Positions 7,864 to 61,386 of a stretch of 61,496 nt of DNA are shown here, one piece after another. Location: positions 1 to 61,496 of the forward strand of contig WRLO01000010.1 in assembly GCA_009777575.1 (NCBI GenBank). The letters run 5' to 3'. The DNA comes from Candidatus Cloacimonadota bacterium (GTDB lineage: Bacteria; Cloacimonadota; Cloacimonadia; Cloacimonadales; WRIO01). The notes beneath the pieces are model-generated. The model was not told the origin of the DNA. It made no database searches and was given only the letters and a program-made list of their open reading frames with translations. Within the stretch, counting starts at the first letter, position 1, and every line of letters begins with the position of its first letter. The position numbers and the translations under genes were made by a program.

Positions 7864-8075
7864 TTGACAAAAAAACTATATCAAATTTTCTCGTCTATAA
7901 CTTCTTTTTTTAACAAAGAGTTTTTCCTGTGGTAATTCTGCGAGCTATTTCACAAGCTCAATATCTCTTGAACCGAGAGCACACAGAGGTAGAGAACACA
8001 GAGAAATACGGAGTTTTTTGAAGTTACCCCCTTGGATTGTTCGACCCACTGGTCCCGGAAGCTCGATGATAGCCT
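7864..8075 (+). repeat. Copy of a mosaic intergenic repeat family in the cheW-kamD divergent region (5' leader of kamD). It carries CACAGAG direct repeats and a GTTCGACCC-containing module.
   Basis: Long stretches align to the reverse complement of 21341-21540 (TCTCG.CTATAACTTCTTTTTTTAACA, GAGAACACAGAGAA, TTTTGAAGTTACC, GGTTCGACCC.CTGGTC.CGG) and to the IR arm at 26358-26404 (GGTAATTCTGCGAGC...ATATCTCTTGAACCGA). Confidence 0.55.
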
Positions 8076-12073: not shown

Positions 12074-12189
12074 AATACAGTAAGGGAAACATTTACCCAT
12101 TTAACATTAATATTATTATCTTTGATGCAATGAAGGTATGAAAAAGATTATCATTTTAAAATGAATTTTAATTAATTATTTAAGATAGA

Positions 12190-12495
12190 GGAATATTTTG
12201 TACGACCACTAGAGCAAATTATATCGAGATTTTACGCCGTTTTAAACAAGAATATGGTGAAAAATAAGGTATTATAAGTATTGGATTATTTGGGTCTGTA
12301 GCACGAGATGAGCATACAGAAGAAAGTGATGTAGATGTTTTGGTAGAAGCGCCAACGATGAGTATATTCACTTGTATGGATATCGCAGAAAAGTTGGAAG
12401 AAATGATGGGTGTAAAAGTGGATATAGCTACAAAATCTAAATTTAAGCGTCCTCGATTTAAGGCAAGAATTGAAAAGGAGGTGGTTTATGTATGA
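12190..12495 (+). pseudogene. Nucleotidyltransferase (MNT/MntA-like antitoxin) gene with an in-frame TAA nonsense codon and no clear start.
   Basis: Frame reads ...EILRRFKQEYGEK*GIISIGLFGSVARDEHTEESDVDVLVE..., with the stop at 12265-12267 falling where a Tyr is expected (GEKYG). GS-x-ARDE..SDxD polymerase-beta-fold signature. Confidence 0.55.
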
Positions 12496-12600
12496 TAAAA
12501 CATTGGTTATTGACCATTTGATATTGATAAAAAACTTAGTTTCGTTATAAAAAGGCAGGTAGAATAGCTTTTGAATCAACTTTATAGGAGTTGTAGTTAT

Positions 12601-12894
12601 ATGGATAATAAGATTCCAGAAAATTATCAAAAAGACATCGAAGTTGCGGTAGATTTTCTTAAAAGCGAGGGTTGCGAAGCAGTTTATCTATTTGGATCAT
12701 TATTAACTGGAAATATTCACGAAAGATCAGACATTGACTTAGGAATTAAAGGGTTACCTCCTAAAAAATTCTTTCGAGTATACGCAAAACTTGATGATAG
12801 AGTAATAAATGAGATTGATCTAGTTGATTTTGATGAACAGTCAAAATTTTATGATTTATTGTGTTCACTTGGAGAGGTAATAAAACTTGGATAA
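12601..12894 (+). CDS. Nucleotidyltransferase-domain (MNT-like) protein, apparently an orphan antitoxin-like component.
   Basis: VYLFGSLLTGNIHERSDIDLGI signature. AGGAG RBS 9 nt upstream of the ATG at 12601. The downstream HEPN-like partner is reduced to a 36-codon fragment (12887-12997). Confidence 0.55.
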   Translation: MDNKIPENYQKDIEVAVDFLKSEGCEAVYLFGSLLTGNIHERSDIDLGIKGLPPKKFFRVYAKLDDRVINEIDLVDFDEQSKFYDLLCSLGEVIKLG

Positions 12895-13078
12895 AACTAT
12901 AGGGAAAAAAATATTATTCGAAATCGAACAGCTTGATGAACTAATGGAAAAATCAAGACCTTTTTTATCTATCTGTCTCGAAAGAGAACCAAACTAAAGA
13001 GGGCAAGGTAGCTGTAGATGTTTTGTTTAAGGATACAAGCGTTTGGTTAAATCAAGAATATAAAATTAGGAGAATATA

Positions 13079-13708
13079 ATGCCAATAAACAAAAATAGTT
13101 TAATAAAATGTTTAATTGAAATGAAAAAGATTTATTTAAAAGACCCTATAGGTTCAGTTCGTAGCCAAGGTTTTATAAATTTCTTACACGAATATTGTAT
13201 TGATGAGCTACAAAAGGTAGGCATAAATGAAAATCATTTTCAGATACTAAAAGAAGCTACTTTATACGGTTCTCACAAATCCAAAGATGTAGATGTAGCA
13301 GTCATTGAAAACATAAACGGTCCACAAATCATTGTAGGTATCCGTAGCCAAATGTCTTCAATAAGTAAGAATATTTTAACATACTATGAAGAAATAATAG
13401 GAGATTGCATTTCCTTGCACGACAGGTTTCCCATGGCAGTTTTGTGTTATATCTATTTGCTACCTAAAAAGCCTATCAAAACAGGAGTAACTGAAAAGGT
13501 TAATCTTGAAAGAGCTGAAAAGCTATATATGAGAATAACTGGTAGAGAAGATTGGAGGTCTCCAAAGGATAAATATGAACATTTTGCTTTTTTGAAAGTA
13601 GATTTCGAAACAGACCCTCCCACCATTTTGGAAACTGACCCTTTATTGTGTATTGAGCATTTTTTTGACAAAATAGTTCATACTTACAATGAAAGGAAAC
13701 CATTATAA
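13079..13708 (+). CDS. Hypothetical protein. Candidate restriction endonuclease partner of the overlapping downstream MTase.
   Basis: 209-aa ORF with strong RBS. 20-bp overlap with the following gamma-class MTase. Possible PD-(D/E)xK-like DVDVAVIEN...GIRSQ segment (weak). Confidence 0.35.
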   Translation: MPINKNSLIKCLIEMKKIYLKDPIGSVRSQGFINFLHEYCIDELQKVGINENHFQILKEATLYGSHKSKDVDVAVIENINGPQIIVGIRSQMSSISKNILTYYEEIIGDCISLHDRFPMAVLCYIYLLPKKPIKTGVTEKVNLERAEKLYMRITGREDWRSPKDKYEHFAFLKVDFETDPPTILETDPLLCIEHFFDKIVHTYNERKPL

Positions 13709-15437
13709 GGAAAGAATTAGTATGTCTCCACATAAGCAAAAGCAAACAGGGTCATTTTATACTGAAAGTGTAGTAGTAGAAAGTATGATAAAATGGGCAA
13801 TCAGAGAAGGTAAAGAAAGTGTTTTAGAACCATCATTTGGAGAAGGCATTTTTATCGAAAAGTCTTTGAATCGCTTTAATGAATTAGGCAATGATAATCC
13901 TAAGCTTGTGGCTATAGAGATACAACCTGAAGTCGCAGATAGTTTCAGAAATAAAGAGAAATTGGAAACATCTTATGTTATAAACAGTGATTTTTTGGCT
14001 TTTCATTCTGATGAAAAATTTGATGTTGTGATAGGCAATCCGCCTTATGTCTGCCTTAAAAACATTTCATCGGAACAAAGATATACAGCTCAAAAAGTCA
14101 TTGAACAGTATTTAACTAGATGCCCAAACAATGGCAGCTTATGGTTTCCATTTGTTTTAAAATCTATTTCGTTATTAAAGCCAGAAGGTCGCATGGCTTT
14201 TGTCTTGCCTTTTGAGATAACTTATACACGATATGCTTATGCTTTGTGGGAGACCTTATCACAAAACTTTTCAAGCCTGTCTATCAGTCGTATATATGAA
14301 GACTTTTTCCCAAATGTCGATGTTGAAACTATTATTTTTTACGCAGCAGGTAAAAATGGGACAACCGACTTTATAGATTACAATATTTATAATGGGGTAG
14401 AGGATTTACAAAATAACAATATAAATAAAAAAGAAATTATCTGTTTGTCAGAAATATTCAACAATGAAAAGCCCTTTATATCTAGGACACTTGACAAAAC
14501 ACAACAGAAACAATTGATCAATATAAAAAACAAAGGTTTTTTGAAACCCATAATAGATAGCTGTAAATTTAAAATAGGTTATGTGTCTGCTGATAAAAAC
14601 TATTTTCATCCACAATCAAACATTATTCGTCATTTTTCAATTCCAGATGAAAATTTGATACCTACGATTTTAAATGCTAAAGAAATAAATGGAGGATCAA
14701 ACATAGGCTTGGAAGTACTTAAAGGAGATTGTTCTTCAAAGCTATACTGTCCTAAAAATATTTCAGAAGGTGATAGGTTATACTTAGAAAATGGAAAAAT
14801 GATGCAAGTTCATAAAAAATATAAATGCAAGAATCGCAAACCATGGTATATTACTCCCAACATTGAGTATCCAGACATGATATTAACCGTTTTTGGTGAA
14901 GTGCCTAAACTTATTGCCAATAAAGGAGGATATGCTGTTTCAAACAGTCTCTTGTGTGGCAGTTTGAAAGGCATTTCAAAAGAGCAATTTATCTGTAGAT
15001 GGTATAACAGCCTTACTTTATTATCTTTGGAGCTGAATATCCATTCTTTGGGTGGAGGAACTTTGGTTATCATACCGGGTGAAGCTGATAGGTTAAATAT
15101 CGTTGAAAATATTCCTCGCAGTATTGTTAGCTCAATATATGAGAAATTGAATGAAGAAACTCAAAAAAACGGAATCGAATACACTTATGCTTTAGGTGAT
15201 AAAATAGTCTTACAAGACATTTTTGGAGTTACTGATGAAGAATTGAAGTATATTCATGAATCAATAAAACTTCTTCGTAGCTGGAGAAACCCTATAAATA
15301 GAAGAAAAGATTGTTTAAAAAAGAATGTTTTTAACACAATAGAAAATAAAGATTTCTTTGCTCAGAAAAAGAAAAATGATATATTAAATAAACATCGTAT
15401 AACACACCTCTCCCAAATAGAGGTAAACAAATATTAG
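13689..15437 (+). CDS. Gamma-class N6-adenine DNA methyltransferase (type II, TaqI/Eco57I-like arrangement).
   Basis: GSFYTE (motif X-like), LEPSFGEGIF (motif I, FxGxG), VIGNPPYV (motif IV NPPY). Long C-terminal target-recognition region. Confidence 0.8.
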   Translation: MKGNHYKERISMSPHKQKQTGSFYTESVVVESMIKWAIREGKESVLEPSFGEGIFIEKSLNRFNELGNDNPKLVAIEIQPEVADSFRNKEKLETSYVINSDFLAFHSDEKFDVVIGNPPYVCLKNISSEQRYTAQKVIEQYLTRCPNNGSLWFPFVLKSISLLKPEGRMAFVLPFEITYTRYAYALWETLSQNFSSLSISRIYEDFFPNVDVETIIFYAAGKNGTTDFIDYNIYNGVEDLQNNNINKKEIICLSEIFNNEKPFISRTLDKTQQKQLINIKNKGFLKPIIDSCKFKIGYVSADKNYFHPQSNIIRHFSIPDENLIPTILNAKEINGGSNIGLEVLKGDCSSKLYCPKNISEGDRLYLENGKMMQVHKKYKCKNRKPWYITPNIEYPDMILTVFGEVPKLIANKGGYAVSNSLLCGSLKGISKEQFICRWYNSLTLLSLELNIHSLGGGTLVIIPGEADRLNIVENIPRSIVSSIYEKLNEETQKNGIEYTYALGDKIVLQDIFGVTDEELKYIHESIKLLRSWRNPINRRKDCLKKNVFNTIENKDFFAQKKKNDILNKHRITHLSQIEVNKY

Positions 15438-15446
15438 GAGAATAAA

Positions 15447-16193
15447 ATGTCATTTATTATAGACCATACAAGAGTCAAACCCTACGGGGATACATTAAAC
15501 GATGGTAGGATACAGCTGTCATTTTCTATGCCAGTTACCTGTGATGAAAAAGGAAAAGAAGCGGCAAAAATTTTGCTAAAATCTATGGGTTTTGAAAACA
15601 TAGAGATTTGTTTTTTGAAAGAATTACATGAAGGTTTTACGCAGTTTATAGCCTACGGAAACACTTCTGTCACTGTAGATACCACCAAAATCATAGTCAA
15701 TGTAGTAGAAACAGAAGTTATGACTATGGATGAAACAGACGATTTTATCGAAAAAAACATAGGTCGGAAAATAACTGTCATAGGTGCTTGTATAGAGACT
15801 GATGCACATACTGTGGGCATCGATGCTATCATGAATATGAAAGGCTACAATCATCGATACGGATTGGAAAGATATAAATATTTCAATGCAATAAATCTTG
15901 GTGCTCAAATACCTTCGGAAGAACTGCTTAAAAGAGCAAGAGAGTTCAATGCTGATGTGATTTTAGTCTCTCAAATAGTTACTCAAAAAGATATTCATGT
16001 CAAAAACCTTACTAGACTAATAGAACTTGCAGAAGCAGAAAGATTGAGAGATAAAATGCTTTTCATCTGCGGTGGTCCAAGACTAAATCACGAACTCGCT
16101 ATCGAACTTGGCTATGATGCAGGTTTTGGAGCAGGAAGTTATGCTACTAATGTGGCGAGTTATATTGCTGTAGAGATGGAGAAAAGGAAGTGA
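15447..16193 (+). CDS. kamE: D-lysine 5,6-aminomutase beta subunit (B12-binding).
   Basis: 248 aa. RVKPYGDTLNDGRIQLSF..., GRKITVIGACIETDAHTVGIDAIMNMKGY..., GGPRLNHELAIELGYDAGFG match KamE as I remember it. Begins 10 bp after the MTase stop with its own RBS. Confidence 0.9.
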   Translation: MSFIIDHTRVKPYGDTLNDGRIQLSFSMPVTCDEKGKEAAKILLKSMGFENIEICFLKELHEGFTQFIAYGNTSVTVDTTKIIVNVVETEVMTMDETDDFIEKNIGRKITVIGACIETDAHTVGIDAIMNMKGYNHRYGLERYKYFNAINLGAQIPSEELLKRAREFNADVILVSQIVTQKDIHVKNLTRLIELAEAERLRDKMLFICGGPRLNHELAIELGYDAGFGAGSYATNVASYIAVEMEKRK

Positions 16194-16313
16194 TAATATA
16201 TAAAAATATGTCGAAAATAGTCTTAAACACAGAGATTTTAGAAAAGGCACAGAGAGTTGCTCTGAGGCTATTTTCGCTCAAGACTGTCGGATTTGGTTTT
16301 AAGGATTGTTAAT

Positions 16314-21340: not shown

Positions 21341-21540
21341 TTTATTTTATATAAAATCATACCTTACACATGCCGAAGCCGCCGCGACCAGAGGGTCGAA
21401 CCATCAAAGCGGTAACTTCAAAATACTCCCTTATTCTCTGTGTTCTCAATCTCTGTGCGTTCTGTGCCTTCTCTCAAAAAACTCTGTGTTAAAAAAAGAA
21501 GTTATAGGCGAGATGTGTAAGGAATATCAATAATTTGACC
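21341..21540. repeat. Member of the mosaic structured repeat family, immediately 5' of the SPFH gene.
   Basis: Ends ATAAAATCATACCTTACACA...ATGTGTAAGGAATATCAATAA are shared with the element at 26004-26436. The internal region is homologous (as reverse complement) to 7864-8075, with CTCTGTG (CACAGAG on the minus strand) direct repeats. Confidence 0.55.
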
Positions 21541-21568
21541 CTTGAAAATTACGATATAGATAGAAAAT

Positions 21569-21865
21569 CTATTTTCGTTTAAATCCTTCGGCGATAATCC
21601 TTTTAGCATTTTCGGGTCTCTCCCTGAGAGTCACGAGAAAATTATACACTCCTACCCCATCCATAAAAGGAGCAAGTTTGTATATCATTTCTGCACTATA
21701 ACCCTCAATTGAAATCATATTTTCAGTTGGAAATATTTTATTTTCTATCCAACTTTCAAGTTCAAATCTAATATCATCATGTTTTGCAAAAGATGATGCT
21801 ATTTTTTCAGCCACTAAAGGTTTTTGTTTTTTTTCATTGATTATATAGTTTAATATCTTATCCAT
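21569..21865 (-). CDS. Hypothetical 98-aa protein directly downstream of the HExxH protein (possible cognate immunity/partner).
   Basis: ORF with a 16-bp gap to the upstream gene on the same strand. No recognisable motif. Confidence 0.4.
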   Translation of the reverse strand: MDKILNYIINEKKQKPLVAEKIASSFAKHDDIRFELESWIENKIFPTENMISIEGYSAEMIYKLAPFMDGVGVYNFLVTLRERPENAKRIIAEGFKRK

Positions 21866-21880
21866 TATTACCCTCCTATT

Positions 21881-22648
21881 TTATATATCAAATCTATCCC
21901 TATACCCTGCAGCAAAATCTCTTGCCTCTGCCTCTACCATCTGGTTTTCATAAGCCTCAAAATCCATATCCGGTGTGATATAGTTTTCAAAACCTTCTTG
22001 ATATTCAGCACCTCTCGGATTTGAGGGATCTTGTGAACATTCATACTGATAAGCATGCCACATTTCATGGGCTATGGTATCAGCAGCTTCTGGTCCGTCA
22101 TCAAGCATATTTTCATTTATTTCGATAATATTTGTTTCTTGATTATAACCACCATAATTATTTTCACCCATATCGCCGCTAAAAACTATCTCTGGTGGGT
22201 TCTTCATACCTGTGTCAGCGATAACATCGTTTGCAAGTTCATTCATTGCCAATTTTTGTTCATCAAGTGTCATATCACTCCAACGACCTATTTCTTGATT
22301 TTCTGGTGCTTTATCATTATACTGGGTCTTGTTAAAGTCAGTATATTCACTACCTGTATATTCCTTGGTCTCTGGTGGTGATTCTACTTCTAAAGGGTTT
22401 TGAACTTCTCCACTTTCTAGATAATCATCATAAGTATAGTCTTTAGAAAATTTGTTTAAATCAACCCCTAAGTTATTTTCTTCATGTATTTCAGGTTTGT
22501 TTTCTATTTCACTAGGTTTATTATTTAAATCGACCCCTGCATCAGTTGCCAAATCTCCCCCAAAGTCATTTGTTAGATTATTGACATCATCTTGAGATAT
22601 TTTATTATCTGGTATTATATCTCTATTTAGTTCATATTTTTCATTCAT
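21881..22648 (-). CDS. Acidic hypothetical protein with a C-terminal zincin-like HExxH motif (IAHEMWHAYQYE).
   Basis: 255 aa. D/E/N-rich N-terminal two thirds. HEMWH..QY resembles the HELVH..QY module at the C-terminus of the 1781-aa protein (46665..52010). Confidence 0.45.
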   Translation of the reverse strand: MNEKYELNRDIIPDNKISQDDVNNLTNDFGGDLATDAGVDLNNKPSEIENKPEIHEENNLGVDLNKFSKDYTYDDYLESGEVQNPLEVESPPETKEYTGSEYTDFNKTQYNDKAPENQEIGRWSDMTLDEQKLAMNELANDVIADTGMKNPPEIVFSGDMGENNYGGYNQETNIIEINENMLDDGPEAADTIAHEMWHAYQYECSQDPSNPRGAEYQEGFENYITPDMDFEAYENQMVEAEARDFAAGYRDRFDI

Positions 22649-22689
22649 AAGATTTTTCCTTTATAAAAATTAAAATAATATATTTTTCC

Positions 22690-22845
22690 TTTCGCATGCC
22701 CGAAGGGTATGTGACGCTTAGTAGAAAACGAACAACAACACAATCCCCCTCCCTACCCCACCAGCAAAGCTGGTGGGGTAGGGAAAAAATAACATCATGG
22801 ACATTCCGTTTTCTACTAAACGATGCACACCTCTGGTGTGCGAGG
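22690..22845. repeat. Highly structured ~155-bp element: terminal hairpins plus a central perfect 15-bp-stem hairpin.
   Basis: CGCATGCCC-GAA-GGGTATGTG at the 5' end. CCCTACCCCACCAGC-AAA-GCTGGTGGGGTAGGG at 22751-22783. CGCACACC-TCT-GGTGTGCG at the 3' end. Flanking imperfect IR CTTAGTAGAAAACG/CGTTTTCTACTAAACG. Homologous to the unit tandemly repeated at 26132-26236. Confidence 0.55.
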
Positions 22846-22858
22846 AAACTAAATATAT

Positions 22859-25534
22859 TCATACTATATTCTCCAAAGTTTTCTGGACAGTAGCATCAGA
22901 CACATTTATCTTCGTTCCATATCTAATTCTGCGAAGTAAATGCAATTCAACACAAGCAAGTAATTTCTGATCATAAACCTCATCGTTCAGCTCGTATTTA
23001 ATAAGCCTTTCTATTTGATTAAATACATTTTTAACGATGGAAGAATCTGCACTATCAGGTTTAAAATTCTTTACAAATATTCTTCTGGCTATTTCTCTAC
23101 CTAAAATTCTTTTATCGTATTCACATCCATCTACACAAAAGCGACAATAACCACATTCAGGATAAGGTCGCAGTTTATCTTTACGGTTATTCCAGTATGT
23201 AGAAAGTGACTTTATACTTTCATCAGAAAGGGTGATACTAATATTTTGAGCGAGTCTATAGTCTTCTGTTTTTATCTCTTCAGGTTCATCAAGCTTTCCA
23301 AAAAATAAAAAGGCTTCACCCGGTTTTAGTTTAGCAAGTCTTTTCTCTTGAATTTCCGTCATATTTGAACTATTGGCTATCATCTCTTTATCCGTGCCTT
23401 CTACAAGCCTAAAAGTGACTTTTATATCCGTCAATGACACAACATCAGTCGAGACTTTTCTCGGTGATTGGTCAGCAATGACTATACCTACTCCATAAGA
23501 GCGAATCTCAGCAAGCATGCGTTTTACTAGTCCTTGAGCTATTGCAGCTGGGTTTGCTTCACCTTCACCAGCATTGGAATCAGCATCAAGCAAAACATGG
23601 GCTTCTTCAAGTAAAATCACATTTTTAAGATTACCTTCACCAAGATAATTACTATTCACATAAGCCAAAATAGATAATAAAAGTAAAGATATTATCAATG
23701 CTTTTTGGTCGCTATTCTCAATAGCAGCAAGCTCAATAACAGTAGGTTTGGTTAATAAATCTTCTATCGGAATAGAATGATAATTATCAAACAAATTTAC
23801 AAGGCTTTGCAACCTTACTAACCCTGCTCTTCCAATATTTTTTGCATCTCCTGTATATCCTATTGCCTCAAAGGTTTCTTCAAAGCATTTAATGAAATCC
23901 GTGATATTAAAAACTTTTCCTTTATTATCGCTGGTATATGTGTCCAACCAACGAAAATCAGAATAACAATTATTGACAGTTTCTTCAAAGATCTTATCAA
24001 GAGGTGATGACATCGCCACACCAGCAGCAAAGGCTGTTTTTAATGTGTTTTTATAGGTCTCAAGTTTTACATTCTTGGGTGGCACAAAAGGATTAAACAC
24101 GAACGGGGATATAAAGTTTTTTCCCGGTGTAAACACCTGCAAGTCTGGAATACTCTGTACCAAAGCTCGATACTCATTTTTTGCTGGTTCAATCACGAGA
24201 AATGGTATTTTATGGTCTTTCCACAGCCTATCAAGCAAACTTACAGAAAATGTAGTTTTACCAGAGCCAGGCGTTCCCACCACAAGCATATGCTTAGTAA
24301 GGTCTTTCAAGGAAATGCCGATAGTATCACCTTGAGAAGATGATTTTAGCCTACCAAGCATGATGTCTCCACCACCAACCACATTATCAGCATAAGTCCG
24401 ACTTATTTTTCCTGATTCGTTCACTACCAGACCAGCATATACTGTGTCACTGCCAATAGGAAGCCTGAAAAATTCTGACGCTTCTTCAGCAGTGATGATA
24501 TAAGGCAATTTATAAAAATCATTTAAATTTTGCCCTACATTCCAAACAGATGGATTTCTATCGGTGGCAAGTAATAATTCGTGAACTGCCCAAGGAAGTG
24601 GGTAGAAGTTGTCGTCTTTCCTTACATCGTTTGGTTGCAATGATGTTATTCTTAGTTCATTACTATTGTTTAATTGAGCCAAAATTCTAGTGGCGATGGC
24701 ATTTGTTTCGCTTTGAGAACCATAAACAAGAATATTAAAGGCAAAAGCAGCTGTGTTCTTTTTCTGAGAATAATATTTATAAGTTTCTGCATGTTTTTCT
24801 GCGAGAGCAAAGCTGATATTACCAACACCATGTTCCATGACACCTTTGGATAGAGTTCCCAGCATTTGAGCATTTCTGTCTATAGCTGAGGCTTCTAGTG
24901 GTGAATAAATGACAGGCATCAACTGAAATGAAACAGCACAATTTGGAAAATCTATAAGCGAACTTACAATACGACTGAGGTCGTTTTCTGTCTCAGCAAT
25001 TTTACTAAAAGCAAAACAATATGGAATCATATTATTTTGTAAGTTCTCAAGATGTTCGCTTTTGACCACTGCTTTTATAGATTGATTATTTGTATTTTTT
25101 ATTTTCGCTATTAAATTATTGATGTCTGCATCTTTATATTCAAATTTACCAAAATCAAGGGTGGATTTGCATACCCTCAAAACAGAGGAAATAGTATTCT
25201 CTATTTCTGCATTATTATTCCCGATTGCTCTGATGATTATATGTAAAGTGATAGCGGCTTTATAGGGTTGGTTCTTCACTTCCTGAGTTGACCATAAGAT
25301 TTCTAGCGATATATCCTGGCTTCCCCCCACATAAATGTGGGGAGGACTTAATTTATAATTCTGATATACCTCCGACAGCAAGCGTGCCATATCCTGCTTG
25401 TACTCGGTATCAATGTTGTCAACTGTAGTAAATCTCTTTTGTAAGATAGACAAGTGCGGTATGCTGGTTATTTCGATTGCACAAAGACCTACATATTCAC
25501 CGTTTGATAATTCGACTATAGAAATATTATTCAT
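22859..25534 (-). CDS. HerA/FtsK-superfamily (DUF87-like) ATPase with a ~380-aa N-terminal extension and a C-terminal Cys cluster.
   Basis: Walker A MLVVGTPGSGKTT, HerA-like IEPAKNEYRAL (DPxGEY-like), Walker B LLEEAHVLL, VIADQSPRKVSTDV. C-terminal CGYCRFCVDGC. Confidence 0.75.
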   Translation of the reverse strand: MNNISIVELSNGEYVGLCAIEITSIPHLSILQKRFTTVDNIDTEYKQDMARLLSEVYQNYKLSPPHIYVGGSQDISLEILWSTQEVKNQPYKAAITLHIIIRAIGNNNAEIENTISSVLRVCKSTLDFGKFEYKDADINNLIAKIKNTNNQSIKAVVKSEHLENLQNNMIPYCFAFSKIAETENDLSRIVSSLIDFPNCAVSFQLMPVIYSPLEASAIDRNAQMLGTLSKGVMEHGVGNISFALAEKHAETYKYYSQKKNTAAFAFNILVYGSQSETNAIATRILAQLNNSNELRITSLQPNDVRKDDNFYPLPWAVHELLLATDRNPSVWNVGQNLNDFYKLPYIITAEEASEFFRLPIGSDTVYAGLVVNESGKISRTYADNVVGGGDIMLGRLKSSSQGDTIGISLKDLTKHMLVVGTPGSGKTTFSVSLLDRLWKDHKIPFLVIEPAKNEYRALVQSIPDLQVFTPGKNFISPFVFNPFVPPKNVKLETYKNTLKTAFAAGVAMSSPLDKIFEETVNNCYSDFRWLDTYTSDNKGKVFNITDFIKCFEETFEAIGYTGDAKNIGRAGLVRLQSLVNLFDNYHSIPIEDLLTKPTVIELAAIENSDQKALIISLLLLSILAYVNSNYLGEGNLKNVILLEEAHVLLDADSNAGEGEANPAAIAQGLVKRMLAEIRSYGVGIVIADQSPRKVSTDVVSLTDIKVTFRLVEGTDKEMIANSSNMTEIQEKRLAKLKPGEAFLFFGKLDEPEEIKTEDYRLAQNISITLSDESIKSLSTYWNNRKDKLRPYPECGYCRFCVDGCEYDKRILGREIARRIFVKNFKPDSADSSIVKNVFNQIERLIKYELNDEVYDQKLLACVELHLLRRIRYGTKINVSDATVQKTLENIV

Positions 25535-25943
25535 TTCCTACCTTCATAAGTAAATCCACAAATGATTCTGGTAAACTCACATTATTCATTTTTATTGCCT
25601 CTTTAAAAAGAGGAGCAATTTCCTCATCTTTAAAACCTGCAATGCCGCAACCTATGCGAGTTACATAAAAAAATAACTCTTGATGTTCTTTAGCAAAATC
25701 CAAAAAATCATTTACATAAGGAATTATACTATCTACTCCTCCTTGCATAGTGGGAATAGCATAACTCTGACCTTGTAATCCGACACCTTGACCATAAATC
25801 GCTCCGAATTTTTCATGAGCAGTTTGAGCCGCTCCACCAGCGTGTTGACCTGCAAGATTACTCCCAAAAACAAAAACTTCATTGGGAGCTAAGGAGCTTA
25901 TTTTTTCGGGTGTTATTAATTTTTTATTCGTTATTATTGTCAT
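25527..25943 (-). CDS. Small Gly-rich Rossmann-like protein translationally coupled to the HerA-like ATPase. Family uncertain (SLOG/LOG/DprA-like at best).
   Basis: 138 aa. VFVFGSNLAGQHAGGAAQTAHEKFGAIYGQGVGLQG. 8-bp overlap with the downstream ATPase gene. Confidence 0.45.
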   Translation of the reverse strand: MTIITNKKLITPEKISSLAPNEVFVFGSNLAGQHAGGAAQTAHEKFGAIYGQGVGLQGQSYAIPTMQGGVDSIIPYVNDFLDFAKEHQELFFYVTRIGCGIAGFKDEEIAPLFKEAIKMNNVSLPESFVDLLMKVGNE

Positions 25944-26003
25944 TTTATTATCCTCAATTTTTATTGTATCTCATTTGAGTCCACTCCGAAAAGTATATTT
26001 TCA

Positions 26004-26436
26004 TAAAATCATACCTTACACACACCGAAGTGTCGGTTCAAGAGATAAGAGGCTATGCCGAATAGCTCGCAGAATTACCTCATGAGAATATCATGCAACC
26101 AACAACATCCACCCCTAAGGGGTGGAACTCTAAAAAGTATATTTGTATAAAATCATACCTTACGCACGCCGAAGGTGTGTGACTCTTTATAGAAAAACGG
26201 CAACCAACAACATCCACCCCTAAGGGGTGGAACTCTAAAAAGTATATTTGTATAAAATCATACCTTACGCACGCCGAAGGTGTGTGACTCTTTATAGAAA
26301 AACGGCAACCAACAACATCCACCCCTAAGGGGTGGAACTCTATGTAGTACAACAATGAGGTAATTCTGCGAGCCATTCGGCATAGCCTCATATCTCTTGA
26401 ACCGATCTCTCCAAGATGTGTAAGGAATATCAATAA
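26004..26436. repeat. Composite foldback repeat element: nested inverted repeats (~47 bp, 2 mismatches) enclosing a tandemly duplicated core.
   Basis: Outer ends ATACCTTACACA / TGTGTAAGGAAT. Inner IR 26028-26081 versus 26358-26404 (CGGTTCAAGAGATAAGAGGCTATGCCGAATAGCTCGCAGAATTACCTC and its reverse complement). Confidence 0.6.
26096..26341 (+). repeat. Tandem duplication of a 105-bp unit (2.3 copies). It superficially resembles a CRISPR array but is not one.
   Basis: 36-mer CAACCAACAACATCCACCCCTAAGGGGTGGAACTCT at 26096, 26201 and 26306. The two intervening 69-bp segments are identical to each other (AAAAAGTATATTTGTATAAAATCATACCTTACGCACGCCGAAGGTGTGTGACTCTTTATAGAAAAACGG). Confidence 0.85.
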
Positions 26437-26558
26437 ATAACTAAAAATCGACTTTTCGGAGAGGACTCCAAATGGAGCATGGTTTGATTTTGAAGAGGGA
26501 TTCTCTTCAATCAGTTTATTTGCACTGTATTCCTTATTCTCTAAATCTGATACTTTCA

Positions 26559-28259
26559 TTAAACTTTTGTTTCCCAATAACCTGTTTTGTCAGAGCCTTT
26601 ACGCTCTATAATATCTAATTTCTTCAATTGGTTAATGTTCTTCTTTACACCGGGTATAGACATACCTACCTCAGAAGCAAGTTGTTCAAGTGTAATTTCA
26701 GGATTTTTTATCAAGATATTAATAATTTTGTTTTGAGTGTCATTTACAGGATACTTTATAGGATACTTTATAGGATACTTTACAGGATACTTTTGAGTAT
26801 CCAATAAATGCTCATTGTTGCTTAATATCCACTGTCCATTTTTATTACCACCTTTACGCTCTATAATGCCTAATTTCTTCAATTGATTAATATTCTTCTT
26901 TATACCAGGTATAGATATCCCTATCTCAGTTGCAAGTTGTTCAATTGTAATTTCAGGATTTTTTGATATAGCATTTATTATTCCGTTTTTAGTTTCATTT
27001 ATAGGATACTTTATAGGATACTTTACAGGATACTTTTCATTCAAATCATTTGCACCGATAATTTCACCATTGTTTGCACTATAAATTTCACCAATATTTG
27101 CACCGATAATTTCACCATTGTTTGAAAGTGGAATACTATTAAAAGTAATATCTGTTCCAGATCTGTTTGATGAAAAAACAGGTAAAGGGTTATCATATTC
27201 TTTACAGGCAATCATGATTTTTTCTATTCCTCTTCCCCAAGCCTCAATCATACCAGAACGGAAAAAAACTTCAGCAATAAATGGATTTCTTTGAACAGAG
27301 CTATGAGGAGATAAAAGAGTATCCACTGTCCAGCTTTCGGGAAGCCCACCAGTATTAAAAACTATCACTTTATCAGGAAATACTTTAATCTGTATCGGCA
27401 CGCCTGTATTATAATCTTTATGCACAACAGCATTCAACAAAGCCTCTCGAAGGGCAGAACGAGCCACAATATAAGAATCTATTCGTTGTATCCCCTCATA
27501 TCGAATAATACCCTTTAAATATTTTGTATAGATTGTATCTAACGCTCTGTCGGGCATTGAGATTAGTGGACCTCTTATTTCATCTTGATAGATTAAATCT
27601 GCACCTGTTTGAAAAAAACCTATTTTTATATAGGCTCCTGTAACCCAATATTCTGGATTTTGGTGAAATAATAAAATTGCTGCTCTTTTTAAATAATTGT
27701 TTTCAGTTAGAGTCAAGTTTTGTATCAAAGTAGCATCATCAATATCTAAATCTTCCTTTGATAGGCGCTGACTTTCTAATGCTTTCTTTCTGAAATAACG
27801 CAAAGCATCCCTTTCTAAATCATCCACCTTTACATAAGGCATAGGAACACCATCCCATGTTTTACCTTGTTTGCGTAAAATAAACTCATCGAGAGCATTA
27901 CCTGTCAATTCCTGTGTTGTGCTACCAGAACGGATATAATATATGCCTCTATAGCTTATGGGAAAAGGATAAGCATTAACATTGATTGAAATATATTCTT
28001 TGCTATTTTTATTCTGGAGAGATATTTCTGCAATGATTGCCATAGCATTCTTTATCTTATTTGGTATATCCTCCATGAGCTTTTTTGATTCAGCCAATCC
28101 AATTATCATGCCTTCGTCATTTCTGACTATCTCTAAACAGCCACCAGACGCATTTGCAAAACCACAGATGGTTTTCAAATATTCATCATGCCAAGATTCT
28201 TTAAATTCAATGTTTTGATTTTCTATTACTTTTTCATCCATTTTCTTTAATGTTTCCAT
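26559..28259 (-). CDS. Schlafen/AlbA_2 (divergent AAA) domain protein with an HATPase_c_4-like region and two tandem C-terminal winged-helix modules. Putative transcriptional regulator.
   Basis: N-terminal NIEFKESWHDEYLKTICGFANASGGCLEIV (AlbA_2). Duplicated ...NPEIT(I/L)EQLA(T/S)E(I/V)G(I/M)SIPG(I/V)KKNINQLKKL(G/D)IIERKG... wHTH, each preceded by KYPVKYPIKYPI peptide repeats. Confidence 0.7.
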   Translation of the reverse strand: METLKKMDEKVIENQNIEFKESWHDEYLKTICGFANASGGCLEIVRNDEGMIIGLAESKKLMEDIPNKIKNAMAIIAEISLQNKNSKEYISINVNAYPFPISYRGIYYIRSGSTTQELTGNALDEFILRKQGKTWDGVPMPYVKVDDLERDALRYFRKKALESQRLSKEDLDIDDATLIQNLTLTENNYLKRAAILLFHQNPEYWVTGAYIKIGFFQTGADLIYQDEIRGPLISMPDRALDTIYTKYLKGIIRYEGIQRIDSYIVARSALREALLNAVVHKDYNTGVPIQIKVFPDKVIVFNTGGLPESWTVDTLLSPHSSVQRNPFIAEVFFRSGMIEAWGRGIEKIMIACKEYDNPLPVFSSNRSGTDITFNSIPLSNNGEIIGANIGEIYSANNGEIIGANDLNEKYPVKYPIKYPINETKNGIINAISKNPEITIEQLATEIGISIPGIKKNINQLKKLGIIERKGGNKNGQWILSNNEHLLDTQKYPVKYPIKYPIKYPVNDTQNKIINILIKNPEITLEQLASEVGMSIPGVKKNINQLKKLDIIERKGSDKTGYWETKV

Positions 28260-28374
28260 AAGTATTCATCCTCTGAAAGTTTATAGTTCCACATATTTTT
28301 TTCGCTCTTTTTTGTCAATCAGAGATTGATGCTACAAGATACCATCACGATGCTTCGACTCTTGGGTGGCGGAG

Positions 28375-28636
28375 CATAAGTGTCAACTTTTCTGTTTGTG
28401 CTTTACCTTTAATGCCCCAGAGGGGCAATGGCTTGGTAGAAATCGGAGACAAAAAGGAATTATTTCTCGTAGCGGTTCAAGAGATTCGAGATTTATCGAG
28501 AAGCTCGTAAAATTACGACATAGCATTATCCCTACAGGATATATCCTCTGTTTTGAGAACACTCTACCAAGCCATAATTCCTCTGGAATATTTAAGGTAT
28601 AATTATAAAAATAGAAAGTTGACACTTATGGTAGCA
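28375..28636. repeat. ~260-bp element bounded by 16-bp perfect (about 35-bp imperfect) terminal inverted repeats. MITE-like or structured leader.
   Basis: CATAAGTGTCAACTTT at 28375-28390 and its reverse complement at 28616-28631. The interior has a GCCCCAGAGGGGC palindrome and a CGGTTCAAGAGAT module shared with the 26004-26436 element. Confidence 0.5.
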
Positions 28637-28655
28637 ATTTCTCTTCTGTAGATCC

Positions 28656-29021
28656 CTACTGCTTTAAAGCAAAAACGAGCATGTTGAAGATTTCATAAGT
28701 TGCAGTTTTAATTTGCAATCCTATCAGAACTCCAAGACCTAGACCTACAATGCCACCTAGAATGGTAAAATCATCACCTCTACCTCCAAGAGTTGAACCA
28801 ATTGCATATCCTATCGCAGCAAATAAAATAGCTACAAATAAAAATGCTACTACATTAAGCTTCTTTTTCGTCACTGGTACTTGCTGAATCAATAACAATT
28901 CCCAGCCCCCAACAGCTTCCTGATCGATTAGAGCTGCATATTTCCTGACAGCTCCTTCATATCCTTCATTTCCTTCTACGACCAGTCCAACTGGTCCCGC
29001 AATCGTTTTGTATTGTGTCAT
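28656..29021 (-). CDS. Small membrane protein (N-terminal soluble domain, possibly DUF4177-like, plus two TM helices).
   Basis: 121 aa. Hydrophobic segments VVAFLFVAILFAAIGYAIG and ILGGIVGLGLGVLIGL. Confidence 0.45.
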   Translation of the reverse strand: MTQYKTIAGPVGLVVEGNEGYEGAVRKYAALIDQEAVGGWELLLIQQVPVTKKKLNVVAFLFVAILFAAIGYAIGSTLGGRGDDFTILGGIVGLGLGVLIGLQIKTATYEIFNMLVFALKQ

Positions 29022-29118
29022 AACACATTACCTCCGTTTATTTTTCCACAGATATTTTTATACCTGCGTTTTTTTTTATCAAAATTTATTTATGACGGCA
29101 GTCCTAAAAGTCGAATTC

Positions 29119-29216
29119 GTAGGGGCGTATTGTATACGCCCGATTTTCGAAACGAATATAAACGATTTAAAAGGCGTATGCAATACGCCCCTACATAGAA
29201 TACCTCCAAAAAAACA
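29119..29216. other. Long hairpin/cruciform: 22-bp near-perfect inverted repeat separated by ~50 bp.
   Basis: CGTAGGGGCGTATTGTATACGCCC ... GGCGTATGCAATACGCCCCTAC. It lies between two co-directional minus-strand genes, so it may act as a terminator or operator. Confidence 0.5.
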
Positions 29217-29269
29217 CCGAAAATACGCAAATATGACTTTTCGGACTGCATTAATATATCCTTTCCCTT

Positions 29270-29818
29270 TTATAATATAAACCAATTTTTCGGTATCATA
29301 AAAAGCAAACAACCGCTTTTCTTAGCTATTTCTTTATCAAATTTGCCTTGTTTGACAGATTCTACAAAATTCATATTTTCCTTAATCTTGTTTTTATAAG
29401 CATCAGCAATATCTTGGGGAGCGTAGTCAATTGCTCTCATAGCATATTTTTGTAGAGTCTCATCAATTATTCTTGCTTTCGTTAATGGACCTTTATTCCC
29501 ATATTTATCTCTATATCCATAATAATCATCGAAATACGAATTGCACCGATAAAGTCCCCACCAAGCCTCATGGCAATTTGGTTTGATTTTCAAAATTTCA
29601 TTAAAAAGCCCAACTGCTTTTTCATAATTTCCATCTTGTATACTATGTTCTGCTGTCTCCAAAAGACTCCTCGCAGTTGGTAAACCATCGATAGTGATTA
29701 CATCTATCACTTTATGTGGTGTCTTACAAAATTCACATTTACTAATACCATTCAAATCGATATCATCGACTTTGATATTACCACCACAGCTACTACATAT
29801 TGCTGGTTGAAGTGCCAT
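29270..29818 (-). CDS. Zinc-ribbon plus TPR-like hypothetical protein.
   Basis: N-terminal CSSCGG...CEFCKTPH (C4 zinc ribbon) followed by a TPR-like helix pair (GNYEKAVGLFNEILKIKPNCHEAWWGLY). Confidence 0.5.
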   Translation of the reverse strand: MALQPAICSSCGGNIKVDDIDLNGISKCEFCKTPHKVIDVITIDGLPTARSLLETAEHSIQDGNYEKAVGLFNEILKIKPNCHEAWWGLYRCNSYFDDYYGYRDKYGNKGPLTKARIIDETLQKYAMRAIDYAPQDIADAYKNKIKENMNFVESVKQGKFDKEIAKKSGCLLFMIPKNWFIL

Positions 29819-29904
29819 ATTTATAAATCCTTTTGATTATTATTTTTTCTATATCTTTTACAACTCACATTTCATTAACTTCCTATTCATAAATGAGATA
29901 TGAA

Positions 29905-29970
29905 ATAGCCTCAACAATTCTCTCTGTGAACTCTGTGCCTTCTCTGTTTTTCTCTGTGTTAAAAAACATT
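29905..29970. promoter_or_regulatory. CACAGAG direct-repeat array (read on the minus strand) 5' of the zinc-ribbon/TPR gene. Same module as in the kamD and SPFH-gene leaders.
   Basis: Plus strand CTCTCTGTGAACTCTGTGCCTTCTCTGTTTTTCTCTGTGTTAAAAAAC, compared with 21441-21500 and the reverse complement of 7961-8005. Confidence 0.45.
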
Positions 29971-29982
29971 AATATTTTTTCC

Positions 29983-33794: not shown

Positions 33795-35387
33795 TTAAGA
33801 TTTTTTATTCCTCACATATTTTATTTGATTCTTTTCACAATATGATGCAGCTATCTCATTGTCATTACAAATAACAGTAATCTTTTTACAACCTCTGAAA
33901 ATTTCCCATCCAAAGTCAACAACACTTGGAGGGATTGAAATTTCCTTTAAGTTTATACAGCCTCTAAACACACTATCATCAATTTTGGTAACTCCATCGG
34001 GTATTTCAATTTTTTCGATTGATGTACAATTTGAAAAAGCACCTATATTAATTGTGTTTAAACTATCATGCAGTATGATTTTTTTGAGGCGTATAGCACC
34101 ATAAAAAGCATATCCATTGATATTTGTTACGCTGTCTGGAACTTCATATTCAACGAAGTCTTTATTTGATGGATAGATCAATAATGTTGATTTATTTTTA
34201 TTAAAAAGAATCCCGTCAGTTGACCTAAAGTACCTATTTTTAGGGTCAACGATGATATTATGTAGTTTACTACATCCTTTAAAAGGACCTATCCCAATTT
34301 CATTAACTTTTGAAGGAATATAAATTGTTTCTAATGAAGAACAATTTAAGAAAACATAATGAGTAATTTTTGTCAACTCCTCTGATAAAACAATGTCTTC
34401 AAGATTTATACATCCTGCAAAAGCTCTATTATTGAGCATTATTACATTCGGTGACAAGGTGATTCTTTTTAGGCTAATACAGTCTGATAATGCGTTTTCA
34501 CCCAATACAGCTAAATCTTCTGGAAGTTTTATATTGTCCAAACTACAGCAACTGTTAAAGACTCCGTTATTTATTTCGATTAAGTCGTCAGGCAGTGATA
34601 TGTTTTTTAATTGAGGGCAGTTTTCAAAAGCTCTTTCAGCTATATCAATTTCTTTTTCAATAACCAAATCAGTCAAATCGATACAATCTCTAAATGCGCT
34701 ATCTCCGATATAAAGGACGGTCTGAGGGATAAAAAGTTTTTTTAACCTACTGCAACCTCGAAAAGCTTCGTTTCCTATATATGTAACTGTTTTAGAAAAT
34801 ACGATAGATTCGAGCTTACGACAATGTTTAAATGCTGAATCAGCAATAGTTTTGATACTTTCATCTAATATGATTTCCTTACTTCCGTCTTTGCATTTTG
34901 TCAAAACACCATCTTTAACAATTAATTGTCTCATTGTTTCAATAGGCAGACTGGCTACAAGATTATCAATATATTTATCGTTTCCATCGGTTGAATAACC
35001 CTTTAAATGTTGCAAGTTTTCGAGTAACAATTTGAAACTATTGGGTATTTCTGCATCACTTTCAAGATATATTGGATAAATTCTTTTGTCGTATTTAAAT
35101 GCTGTGATAATCTCCATTCCCACATACTTTGACTGCATAGATGCAGTTGAGATAAATAGGATGAATGCTCCGCATTTTTCTATTCTTGTTCTGAGTTCTT
35201 CTCTAAAGTCAGAGCCTATCTCCATCGTATCATCATACCATATTCTGAATCTTTCACTATCGAGTTTATTCAAAATCTTATACACAATATCTGTATTCGT
35301 ATGAGAATAACTAACAAATAGAAACGGATTTGAGCCGTTGTAAACTTCAAAGTTTATATTCGGTTTTGTAAAATTGTTTTCCGACAT
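33795..35387 (-). CDS. TIR-domain protein fused to BspA-type leucine-rich repeats (LRR_5).
   Basis: N-terminal FLFVSYSHTNTD...RIWYDD...ILFIS...SKYVGMEI (TIR_2-like, including a candidate catalytic Glu). C-terminal repeats of ...IGDSAF..C..L..I.IP..V..IG..AF. Confidence 0.75.
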   Translation of the reverse strand: MSENNFTKPNINFEVYNGSNPFLFVSYSHTNTDIVYKILNKLDSERFRIWYDDTMEIGSDFREELRTRIEKCGAFILFISTASMQSKYVGMEIITAFKYDKRIYPIYLESDAEIPNSFKLLLENLQHLKGYSTDGNDKYIDNLVASLPIETMRQLIVKDGVLTKCKDGSKEIILDESIKTIADSAFKHCRKLESIVFSKTVTYIGNEAFRGCSRLKKLFIPQTVLYIGDSAFRDCIDLTDLVIEKEIDIAERAFENCPQLKNISLPDDLIEINNGVFNSCCSLDNIKLPEDLAVLGENALSDCISLKRITLSPNVIMLNNRAFAGCINLEDIVLSEELTKITHYVFLNCSSLETIYIPSKVNEIGIGPFKGCSKLHNIIVDPKNRYFRSTDGILFNKNKSTLLIYPSNKDFVEYEVPDSVTNINGYAFYGAIRLKKIILHDSLNTINIGAFSNCTSIEKIEIPDGVTKIDDSVFRGCINLKEISIPPSVVDFGWEIFRGCKKITVICNDNEIAASYCEKNQIKYVRNKKS

Positions 35388-52010: not shown

Positions 52011-52012
52011 AT

Positions 52013-53668: not shown

Positions 53669-53720
53669 ACACTACTATATATGCCAACGCTTTGGGTTCA
53701 TTAAGCCACTAGGGCATATT

Positions 53721-57200: not shown

Positions 57201-57213
57201 GATAAACCCTCCT

Positions 57214-61306: not shown

Positions 61307-61338
61307 TTTTTACCTCTGGATATTTTTTGCATAAAAAA

Positions 61339-61386
61339 AAGACATCTCTTTTGCGAGAGTCTAATTTTCTCACAAAAGAGATGTCT
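61339..61386 (-). terminator. Strong hairpin (15-bp perfect, ~25-bp extended stem) followed on the minus strand by T8. Intrinsic terminator or attenuator ~25 bp upstream of the M48 gene start.
   Basis: AAGACATCTCTTTTG ... CAAAAGAGATGTCTT. The minus-strand reading gives the hairpin and then TTTTTTTTATGC. Confidence 0.5.

Follow-up and report, generated by a model that had tools for sequence, protein, structure and literature searches.

Hairpin repeats in the intergenic spacers

The intergenic spacers of a 61,496-nt contig of a Candidatus Cloacimonadota bacterium (WRLO01000010.1; hereafter the window, i.e., the whole stretch analyzed) carry, mainly between 21.3 and 30 kb, a set of repeat elements that are non-coding, dispersed, intergenic, conserved in hairpin shape and non-autonomous in the window. 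These spacer repeats are read here as non-coding, non-autonomous DNA of the class of repetitive extragenic palindromic sequences (REPs), bacterial interspersed mosaic elements (BIMEs) and MITEs (miniature inverted-repeat transposable elements), made up of several families and possibly mobilized as hairpin DNA, a reading to which we give a probability of about 0.6. The repeats look selfish and appear to be new in sequence rather than a new kind of thing. Several families are co-resident in the spacers, namely the arms of the main family, module C, a CACAGAG module, outer palindromes and GTAG-tagged REPs. Hence, of the single mosaic family proposed in the original prediction, made from the sequence alone, the dispersed hairpin mosaic repeats were retained, and the idea of one family was not.

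The sharing of modules between spacers was recovered at the positions given in that prediction, and the modules recur far above chance. The spacers were compared with the window by blastn-short and repeat finding, and copy numbers expected for motifs were taken from shuffles. Under these conditions, 21350-21378 matched 26003-26030, 26146-26174 and 26251-26279, and 21511-21533 was identical to 26414-26436 (23/23). In inverted orientation, 26033-26083 matched 26355-26405 (96%), 7889-7925 matched 21477-21513 (95%), 7982-8054 matched 21386-21457 (85%) and 7931-7949 matched 26061-26079. The 20-mer terminus ATAAAATCATACCTTACRCA is present in four copies in the window and GGTAATTCTGCGAGC in three, each against 0.00 expected, and CACAGAG in 12 copies against 3.6 ± 1.8. 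The hairpins quoted in the prediction are also present, at 26163, 26268 and 22693. The spacers 22690-22845 and 28375-28636 have little plain sequence in common with the rest; their membership was established with R1, a covariance model of the arms, which scored 57 and 34 bits in the former and 36 bits in the latter. No arm was found by R1 in the window outside 21.3-28.6 kb. Two further features had been missed, a CACAGAG module at 16227-16262 and a pair of GTAG-tagged REPs at 29119-29194.

Architecture of the arm

Comparison of many copies showed that the basic unit of the main family is an arm of about 95 nt which comprises, from the outside inwards, an AT-rich terminus, hairpin 1, a linker, a C/A-rich spacer and hairpin 2. 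The terminus is either T1 (TATAAAATCATACCTTACRCA; the above 20-mer) or T2 (TTATTGATATTCCTTACACA). Both hairpins have 8 bp, as in CACATGCC-GAA-GGTATGTG for hairpin 1 and GCATCCC-GTA-GGGATGC for hairpin 2, and the linker GCTnnGTAGAAAACG between them is nearly invariant, TAGAA being found in 51/51 aligned arms and ATAG in the window subfamily. Two inverted arms around an asymmetric center of about 24 nt make up the full element, a near-perfect palindrome of about 200 nt (core about 180 nt). Over all forms, the termini, T1/T1 or T1/T2, are inverted and 35-418 nt apart. Minimal copies, such as those in L112 and L097 (L-numbers designate retrieved metagenome contig loci), are one long hairpin with little beyond both termini. 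Other copies have lost or gained central material; in the 21.3 kb spacer, a non-palindromic cargo lies exactly between both half-hairpins. Many elements occupy the loop of another palindrome, either GAGTCCACTCCGAAAAGT...ACTTTTCGGAGTGGACTC or one related to it, the pair 25974-26001 and 26444-26471 being such an enclosing palindrome in the window. The mosaic look of the spacers therefore results from nesting and central deletions.

In the window subfamily, hairpin 1 is CGCACGCC-GAA-GGTGTGTG, the linker CTCTTTATAGAAAAACG and hairpin 2 CCACCCC-TAA-GGGGTGG, and the copies are about 90% identical to those of L073 and L086. A second subfamily is carried by most retrieved contigs, which come from a related organism of the same Joint Genome Institute (JGI) sample with a 77% identical KamD. 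In L045 (positions 1-100), a copy is broken just after hairpin 1, at the end of the contig, by a sequence starting GTGTGCCGAG, which resembles the 5' end of a group II intron and has no Rfam match.

The features found in the window, with R1 scores where they apply, are the following.

7889-8054, plus strand: cargo like that of 21386-21513, in the sense of kamD, with a copy of module C inside (7925-7976) and without T1 or T2
16220-16275, plus strand: CACAGAG module between kamE and mazG, from the motif count
21351-21378, plus strand: T1 terminus ATAAAATCATACCTTACACA (exact 20-mer) and 5' half of hairpin 1, ending about 21 nt upstream of the start codon of the SPFH protein gene
21379-21512, minus strand: non-palindromic cargo between T1 and T2, with the CACAGAG module, GTTCGACCC.CTGGTC and TAACTTC/GAAGTTA ends, in the sense of the downstream gene
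21511-21533, minus strand: T2 terminus TTATTGATATTCCTTACACATCTCG, also found in L043, L086, L131 and L085
22676-22859, no strand: palindromic element of two inverted arms (hairpin 1 and TAGTAGAAAACG) around a central hairpin of 16-20 bp at 22746-22789; R1 57.2 bits at 22676-22800 (plus) and 33.9 bits at 22734-22859 (minus)
25974-26001, plus strand: left arm GAGTCCACTCCGAAAAGT of the outer palindrome O1, which encloses the composite 26003-26436; 86% complementary to 26444-26471
26003-26094, plus strand: T1 terminus and module C arm CGGTTCAAGAGAT...GCTCGCAGAATTACCTCAT, with an inverted partner at 26355-26405 (96%); R1 45.5 bits, E 8e-9, the arm being outside the model; 92% identical to L092 1400-1506
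26095-26349, plus strand: 2.4 tandem units of 105 nt, mutually 100% identical, with hairpin 2 CCACCCC-TAA-GGGGTGG, T1, hairpin 1 CGCACGCC-GAA-GGTGTGTG and CTCTTTATAGAAAAACG; R1 94.7 and 90.7 bits; 90% identical to L073 and L086
26355-26436, minus strand: right module C arm and T2 terminus, from the inverted repeat and blastn matches
26444-26471, minus strand: right arm of O1, complementary to 25974-26001
28375-28636, no strand: divergent member of the arm family, with outer inverted repeats 28375-28390 and 28615-28630; arms GCCCC-AGA-GGGGC and ATTCC-TCT-GGAAT, each beside GGTAGAAATCG and 78% complementary to each other; center with a module-C-like core CGGTTCAAGAGAT...GCTCGTAAAATTAC; R1 36.1 bits, E 1.7e-6 at 28508-28609 (minus) and 16.6 bits, E 0.12 at 28394-28465 (plus), neither being in the model; matches L073 and L086
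29097-29250, no strand: O1-like outer arms (29097-29112 and 29236-29250) around an inverted pair of GTAG-GGGCGTATTGTATACGCCC REPs, 29119-29141 and 29173-29194 (inverted repeat of 95% over 22 nt); 82-86% identical to L086 and L101
29905-29975, minus strand: CACAGAG module TTTTTTAACACAGAG..GAAGGCACAGAG..CACAGAGAGAATTG, in the sense of the flanking genes; 89% identical to L086 4316-4361

The arms of O1 gave 31 matches in 21 loci and also enclose elements in L043, L086, L102 and L119. The cargo 21379-21512 is no more structured than its shuffles on either strand (z score −0.16 to +1.27).

Dispersal and location of the copies

A scan of public metagenome contigs with a 17-mer of the terminus matched at least 116 contigs, and in 44 of the matched contigs listed the terminus is followed by the family hairpin. 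With R1, 122 arms (E ≤ 1e-3) were counted in 378 kb of other metagenome contigs, i.e., about one arm per 3 kb, a density that refers to contigs mostly chosen for carrying the repeat; two of these arms lie in L144, which was retrieved through kamD rather than through the repeat. The absence of copies beyond the locus, named in the original prediction as an outcome that would count against it, was looked for, and these 44 contigs and 122 arms were found instead. Because the arms lie on contigs with different flanking genes, a purely local duplication is excluded. An artefact or local event, either one duplication or an assembly chimera across repeats, might have been suspected, since all arms of the window lie within 21.3-28.6 kb and since two JGI contigs meet in the window within the tandem repeat at 26.1-26.3 kb. 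Indeed, the window corresponds to contigs of 26,169 and 35,197 nt put together over the 105-nt tandem repeat; both terminate within that repeat (26095-26349), and the number of units is assembly-dependent and uncertain. However, more than 100 arms are on unrelated contigs, and the only long match of the window among the loci is L116, a distant orthologue. Such an explanation has a negligible probability: it is refuted in general, and all that survives of it is a caveat about how many tandem copies there are.

The arm family appears to be restricted to a few uncultured lineages. An 18-mer of the terminus, searched in one genome per species (185,579 species, among which the lineage is unrepresented), gave 23 matches, all by chance and without family context, and viral contigs gave five chance matches to the terminus and none to REP_a, a GTAG-tagged repeat described below. 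The 17-mer also matched an unrelated repeat of about 0.3-2 kb (..ggtacgtaacAAATCATACCTTACACAaggatctg..) in L035, L036, L039, L042 and about 25 other loci. About 30 contigs carry this repeat (80-96% identity), which probably represents a transposable element from some other organism of those samples, unrelated to the present finding.

The copies are essentially all intergenic, 15 being located between co-directional genes, seven between convergent and four between divergent genes. Another 26 are at contig ends; repeats break assemblies, and contigs therefore end at intergenic spacers. It had been claimed that every copy lies 5' of the gene it precedes. This placement is trivial in the window, because all genes around the copies are co-directional (the plus strand carries the genes of 8.2-19.3 kb, the minus strand those of 19.5-61.3 kb), and it is false in general, as illustrated by the seven copies between convergent genes.

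The location of the copies also bears on a possible role as host-domesticated punctuation, in which intercistronic hairpins would attenuate transcription or guard mRNA 3' ends and with which a mobile origin is compatible. The genes on either side of most copies are co-directional or convergent, REPs in other phyla are found predominantly downstream of coding regions (PMC3733652), and between 21.2 and 30.1 kb 15 terminator-like sites were counted against 5.7 ± 2.5 expected, mostly repeat hairpins with G/T-rich tails on the gene-sense strand. However, these tails are T-poor (TGTTGTTGGT), the T run of the 22.7 kb spacer precedes the hairpin, and both the presence and the type of element vary between related genomes, so that we consider domesticated punctuation rather improbable. 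Promoter function was rejected as well, as 42 promoter-like sites against 35.4 ± 6.4 expected represent no enrichment. A candidate promoter at 21.5 kb (TTGATA-18 nt-TATAAC, across the junction of T2 and cargo) was not reproduced upstream of kamD, and a sigma-54 promoter in GGCACAGAGAGTTGC was discarded on inspection, its spacing being off by one base.

Co-resident repeat families

Module C, CGGTTCAAGAGAT...GCTCGCAGAATTAC, follows the pattern CGGTTCAAGAGAT - variable hairpin - GCTCGYARAATTAC and is present at 26033-26083, 26355-26405 and 7925-7976, with a divergent copy at about 28466-28510. The CACAGAG module (TTTTTTAACACAGAG..GAAGGCACAGAG..) is about 70 nt long, non-palindromic and unstructured on both strands (z about 0). 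Its copies were located at 7982-8003, 16227-16262, 21436-21489 and 29922-29975 of the window and at 1310-1340 and 4323-4361 of L086. All six spacer copies (four in the window, two in L086) are in the sense of the flanking genes (two-sided p about 0.03), and the start of the module is often about 10-35 nt from the upstream stop codon.

Two further repeats carry the GTAG tag. REP_a, GTAG/GTAC followed by GGAACGCATTTATTCGTTCC, gave 186 two-strand matches in 380 kb, i.e., about 93 copies if the near-palindromic nature of the unit is allowed for by halving; in L144 (6122-6432) and L145, an array of it lies directly upstream of kamD. REP_b, GTAG-GGGCGTATTGCATACGCCC, gave 38 matches, three of which are in the window, including the inverted pair at 29119-29194. 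The features by which GTAG REPs and their dimers are defined, as well as tyrosine transposases flanked by terminal inverted repeats, have been described (PMC3733652), and REP_a and REP_b conform to that definition of REPs and dimers. Such canonical REPs share spacers with the arm elements and abut them; a classical GTAG REP site was also noted at L116 370-470.

Conservation of the hairpins and the question of strand

Covariation in the two local hairpins was assessed over 51 aligned arms against 500 column shuffles. Standard pairs occupied 95.7% of the cells, versus 89.7% in the shuffles, and 10/16 pairs were changed on both sides, in 45 cells; the observed values were reached in 0/500 shuffles. 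When the 3' partners were slid by 1-3 columns, pairing fell to 23-52%. In hairpin 1, the fifth pair changes from U-A to C-G, the sixth alternates between G-U, A-U and C-G, and the seventh changes from C-G to U-A. Hence, the compensatory change that had been noticed in a single hairpin was borne out and is general across the arms. In L086, in L102 and at 28375-28636 of the window, the two arms have different stems, each of which is locally complementary, and complementarity from arm to arm is lost. As the arms differ yet stay locally paired, the conserved object is the local hairpin and not merely a long inverted repeat.

The loops vary little in form: 93/102 are GAA, GTA or GGA closed by C-G (GTA 55, GAA 36), i.e., G-N-A triloops. 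Triloops of the C(GNA)G type are unusually stable in single-stranded DNA, a stability that the folding software neither confirms nor refutes.

The hairpins had been proposed to be selected as plus-strand RNA. Under this explanation, the elements would be structured RNAs, either 5' leaders or small RNAs, whose secondary structure is selected on the plus strand, and in favor of this the hairpins covary. Moreover, owing to two G-U pairs, the 105-nt unit has a better fold as RNA of the plus strand (z −3.5 versus −1.7 on the minus strand), G-T pairs in REP stems elsewhere have been taken to hint at a function as RNA (PMC3733652), and asymmetric T2-to-T1 copies are co-oriented with flanking genes in 6/7 cases, which is not significant. 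However, the plus strand is favored only in that unit. The common G-T wobble, present in 37/51 arms, is always on the strand running from terminus to center, so that its strand changes from one arm of an element to the other; in 17 arms, hairpin 2 has a C-A mismatch at its base, the polarity of which is opposite to that of the wobble. On the minus strand, the 22.7 kb element (22700-22840) folds as well as on the plus strand or slightly better (z −8.9 versus −7.9 as RNA; −7.65 and −7.3 as DNA), and the CACAGAG module is unstructured. Besides, all genes from 19.5 to 61 kb have the plus strand as their antisense strand, canonical elements are oriented without bias with respect to genes (three same, four opposite), copies occur between convergent genes, and the elements are not conserved upstream of orthologous kamD. 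Neither the window nor 20 loci had a match to Rfam 15 at the gathering score, and E-value mode returned only three chance-level matches (E ≥ 0.17). Selection as plus-strand RNA was therefore not upheld, and a structured RNA is very unlikely. A tRNA-like stretch, GGTTCGACCC, was rejected since it has no T-arm pairing; no tRNA or tmRNA was found in the window.

Possible mobilization of the arms

Within the REP/BIME/MITE reading, the arms would spread, or would once have spread, by transposition in trans, and the enzyme favored for this step is an HUH tyrosine transposase of the RAYT/TIRYT type (RAYT, REP-associated tyrosine transposase), which would act on single-stranded hairpin DNA. Mobilization as hairpin DNA is favored because the hairpin shape and a short, invariant single-stranded linker are conserved, because the modular, tandem and nested layout resembles that of BIME clusters, because classical GTAG REPs of the same genomes abut the elements, and because the loops are the unusually stable C(GNA)G DNA triloops. 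Since classical GTAG REPs are present in these genomes, a RAYT-type enzyme is expected there. Effects on neighboring genes, such as weak termination, protection of mRNA ends or accidental promoters, would be secondary.

Several points weigh against this reading. No Y1/HUH gene was detected in about 1 Mb of loci plus the window, which are genome fragments only, by phmmer with sequences of IS200 TnpA and E. coli RAYT or by the HUH...Y motif. No empty site or polymorphism was found, there are no orthologous pairs among the family loci, and exact protein matches are limited to contigs of the same sample; mobility is inferred from dispersal alone. GTAG is not placed as in classical REPs, lying 8 nt 3' of hairpin 1 or in loops and being replaced by ATAG in the window subfamily. 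DNA folding failed to predict hairpin 1 in the 105-nt unit. In addition, an apparent compensatory change can arise without selection, through subfamily descent or mismatch correction in a hairpin, and many of the covarying cells reflect few subfamily splits and not independent events. Finally, the conserved termini fit a DDE-type MITE equally well, as does the AT-rich TA/ATAT junction, a possible target-site duplication. A weak Y1 match given by phmmer to a 260-aa protein of L033 (starting MIDIHTHILPNLDDGS) was set aside, as this protein looks like a PHP-type phosphatase.

According to this last alternative, the elements would be classical MITEs, i.e., deleted derivatives of an insertion sequence whose DDE transposase would bind the terminal inverted repeats (..CATACCTTACACA), insert at TA- or AT-rich sites and duplicate the target. 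The conservation of 20-nt termini, inverted at both ends, agrees with it, as does a length of about 50-430 nt with no open reading frame (ORF), the minimal copies of L112 and L097 being barely more than their termini. Every intact copy has ATAT at the end of the left flank and at the start of the right flank, which is compatible with a TA/ATAT duplication, and contigs break at the elements. However, ATAT is self-complementary, so that its duplication is indistinguishable from an extension of the inverted repeat, and no direct repeat is visible beyond the ATAT junctions. T1 and T2 differ outside CCTTACACA. No autonomous partner was found in the window, and in 44 loci no pair of termini encloses an ORF of transposase size; a Pfam scan of 150 locus ORFs revealed no partner among the 25 commonest families listed, a result in which single matches could be missed. 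A DDE mechanism also leaves unexplained the conserved internal hairpins and the GTAGAAA linker with their covarying stems, as well as tandem arrays of hairpin units (L033 6447-6811). Hence, we regard classical MITEs as a serious but unlikely alternative.

Comparison with known repeat systems

The closest parallels to the arm family were sought among GTAG-REP, REPIN and BIME systems, which depend on RAYT and are known from E. coli, Pseudomonas and Stenotrophomonas (SMAG) and from a survey (PMC3733652). Both are high-copy, extragenic and non-coding, and both have short stems with very short loops, the 8-bp stems and 3-nt loops found here falling within the roughly 6-13 bp of REPs. Subfamilies with complementary stem changes, common G-T pairs, inverted dimers that can fold into a larger hairpin (as the full elements can) and mosaic clusters with conserved linkers are shared as well. 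In contrast, no GTAG is found at the foot of the stem in the arm family, REP_a and REP_b alone having the tag. The arm unit, with about 95 nt, two hairpins and a conserved 20-nt AT-rich terminus, has no counterpart in REPs, full elements, at about 200 nt, are longer than REPINs (roughly 70-110 nt), and no RAYT was found in the loci and window searched. As far as we can tell, Cloacimonadota are not among the phyla of that survey, and no description of these repeats in Cloacimonadota was found in the literature.

The families of terminal inverted repeats known as TIRtrons or associated with TIRYT (PMC3733652) are likewise moderately abundant long inverted repeats, unrelated to GTAG REPs, some of them with self-complementary tracts. 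They occur as singles, dimers and clusters, and mobilization by an HUH Y1 enzyme has been proposed for them. Their sequences are unrelated to those described here, in which the GGGGWSAS motif is absent, and it is the association with a TIRYT gene that defines the class.

Bacterial MITEs (Correia/NEMIS of Neisseria, RUP, ERIC/IRU and Nezha), for which the sequence comparison was that with Rfam, resemble the arm elements in having terminal inverted repeats, lengths of 50-400 nt and long hairpins, and in being intergenic, abundant, non-autonomous and bounded by AT/TA-rich junctions. They differ in that no cognate insertion sequence was found and no target-site duplication can be demonstrated here, in that covarying internal hairpins and an invariant linker are kept across subfamilies, and in the modular, tandem and nested layout, which is more BIME-like. 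The ends of IS200/IS605 and their palindrome-associated derivatives offer another parallel, with subterminal imperfect hairpins that are read as single-stranded DNA, strand-specific mismatches or wobbles and no target duplication. Their two end hairpins, however, are on the same strand, so that the element is no palindrome, whereas the arms are inverted, and no TnpA or TnpB gene is nearby.

The original prediction had recognized no known REP/BIME, Correia, BOX, RUP or ERIC family in the spacers. The lack of an Rfam match agrees with this, but the distance from REPs that it implied does not hold, as GTAG REPs abut the elements. The arm family works like REP/BIME clusters or MITEs, yet it falls outside each of these classes or cannot be placed fully in it. 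It is therefore best described as a variant of the REP/BIME/MITE kind, because it has no stem-foot GTAG and no demonstrable target-site duplication, and because neither a RAYT nor a cognate insertion sequence was found in the loci and window searched.

It is also conceivable, although doubtful, that an undescribed system of single-strand DNA transposition in Cloacimonadota, with perhaps a divergent HUH enzyme, uses the arm as its substrate beside the classical REPs of the same genome; it would build the 200-nt palindromes and insert preferentially into loops of palindromes already present, with onion-like nesting as the outcome. If true, this would be a REPIN-like system with a recognition grammar other than that of GTAG-REP/RAYT. 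REP-class repeats shape operon expression, genome rearrangement and assembly quality, and their spread is poorly understood even for the REPs of E. coli. A phylum known only from metagenomes, with dense modular repeats beside GTAG REPs, offers a natural comparison for what a hairpin-recognizing transposase reads, and the seeming presence of two recognition grammars in one genome is relevant to the study of REP-like spread. The general interest is modest, as no new biological principle is involved. The present case also emphasizes that such spacers should not be taken for riboswitches or gene-specific leaders.

The region upstream of kamD

This caution applies to 7864-8075, which had been described as the leader of kamD. 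The element is missing upstream of kamD in relatives with 77-83% identical proteins (L141, L142 and L144). The gene of the 83% identical protein follows a short spacer free of repeats, that of the 79% identical one an unrelated spacer, and that of the 77% identical one an array of REP_a. As a leader, the stretch 7864-8075 is not conserved. In the window, kamD (8190-9782) and kamE (15447-16193) are 5.6 kb apart and restriction-modification and defense-type genes lie between them (9957-15437), encoding an EcoRI-type methylase, a GmrSD-HNH nuclease, a Pol-beta-type nucleotidyltransferase and an Eco57I-type methylase. The two kam genes are adjacent in four related contigs, with kamE directly after kamD.

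Gene context and source of the window

The window is AT-rich, with a G+C content of about 33%. Its DNA is also present in JGI metagenome 3300002469 and, as a Cloacimonetes group is known from termite guts (PMC7024585), we suspect that it comes from a termite hindgut. Between 19 and 38 kb, the gene content is accessory and defense-like, with products such as an SPFH protein, a SprT-like peptidase, a HerA-like ATPase, a Schlafen/AlbA_2 regulator and a TIR-LRR protein.

Such a setting, in which co-directional accessory or defense-like genes (HerA-like ATPase, Schlafen/AlbA_2 regulator, TIR-domain proteins) are split by structured inverted repeats, could suggest integron attC-like recombination sites of a gene-cassette array marking mobile defense cassettes. 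However, no transposase, integrase or recombinase domain was found among the 46 window ORFs scanned, and on inspection the termini have no RYYYAAC/GTTRRRY core sites. Each spacer is a self-contained element with both termini, the elements elsewhere lie beside housekeeping genes and between convergent genes, and palindromes of 66-433 nt with four hairpins are unlike attC. We consider an attC-like array extremely improbable. Resemblances to dif and to Tn5 ends were rejected on inspection.

The 3' part of the gene for the Schlafen/AlbA_2 regulator (26574-27124) contains an internal duplication of 211 nt (26574-26784 versus 26829-27039, 82%), which spans winged-helix domains, and three periodic repeats of 24 nt at 27048-27124. 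Further downstream, conflict-system-like genes lie within 33795-35387, 44153-45280 and 46665-59157. They encode two TIR-domain proteins, one with BspA-type leucine-rich repeats, and a 1159-aa protein with a Tubulin_2 domain, as well as neighbors of 1781, 551 and 647 aa without a Pfam match.

Finally, a run of 23-25 C is present at 61414-61440 (minus-strand reading), in the spacer upstream of an M48 peptidase gene, where it adjoins a short inverted repeat (61323-61348 and 61455-61480). This run may be phase-variable, or it may be an artefact of the assembly. Long runs of G or C also lie beside repeat elements in L029 and L111.

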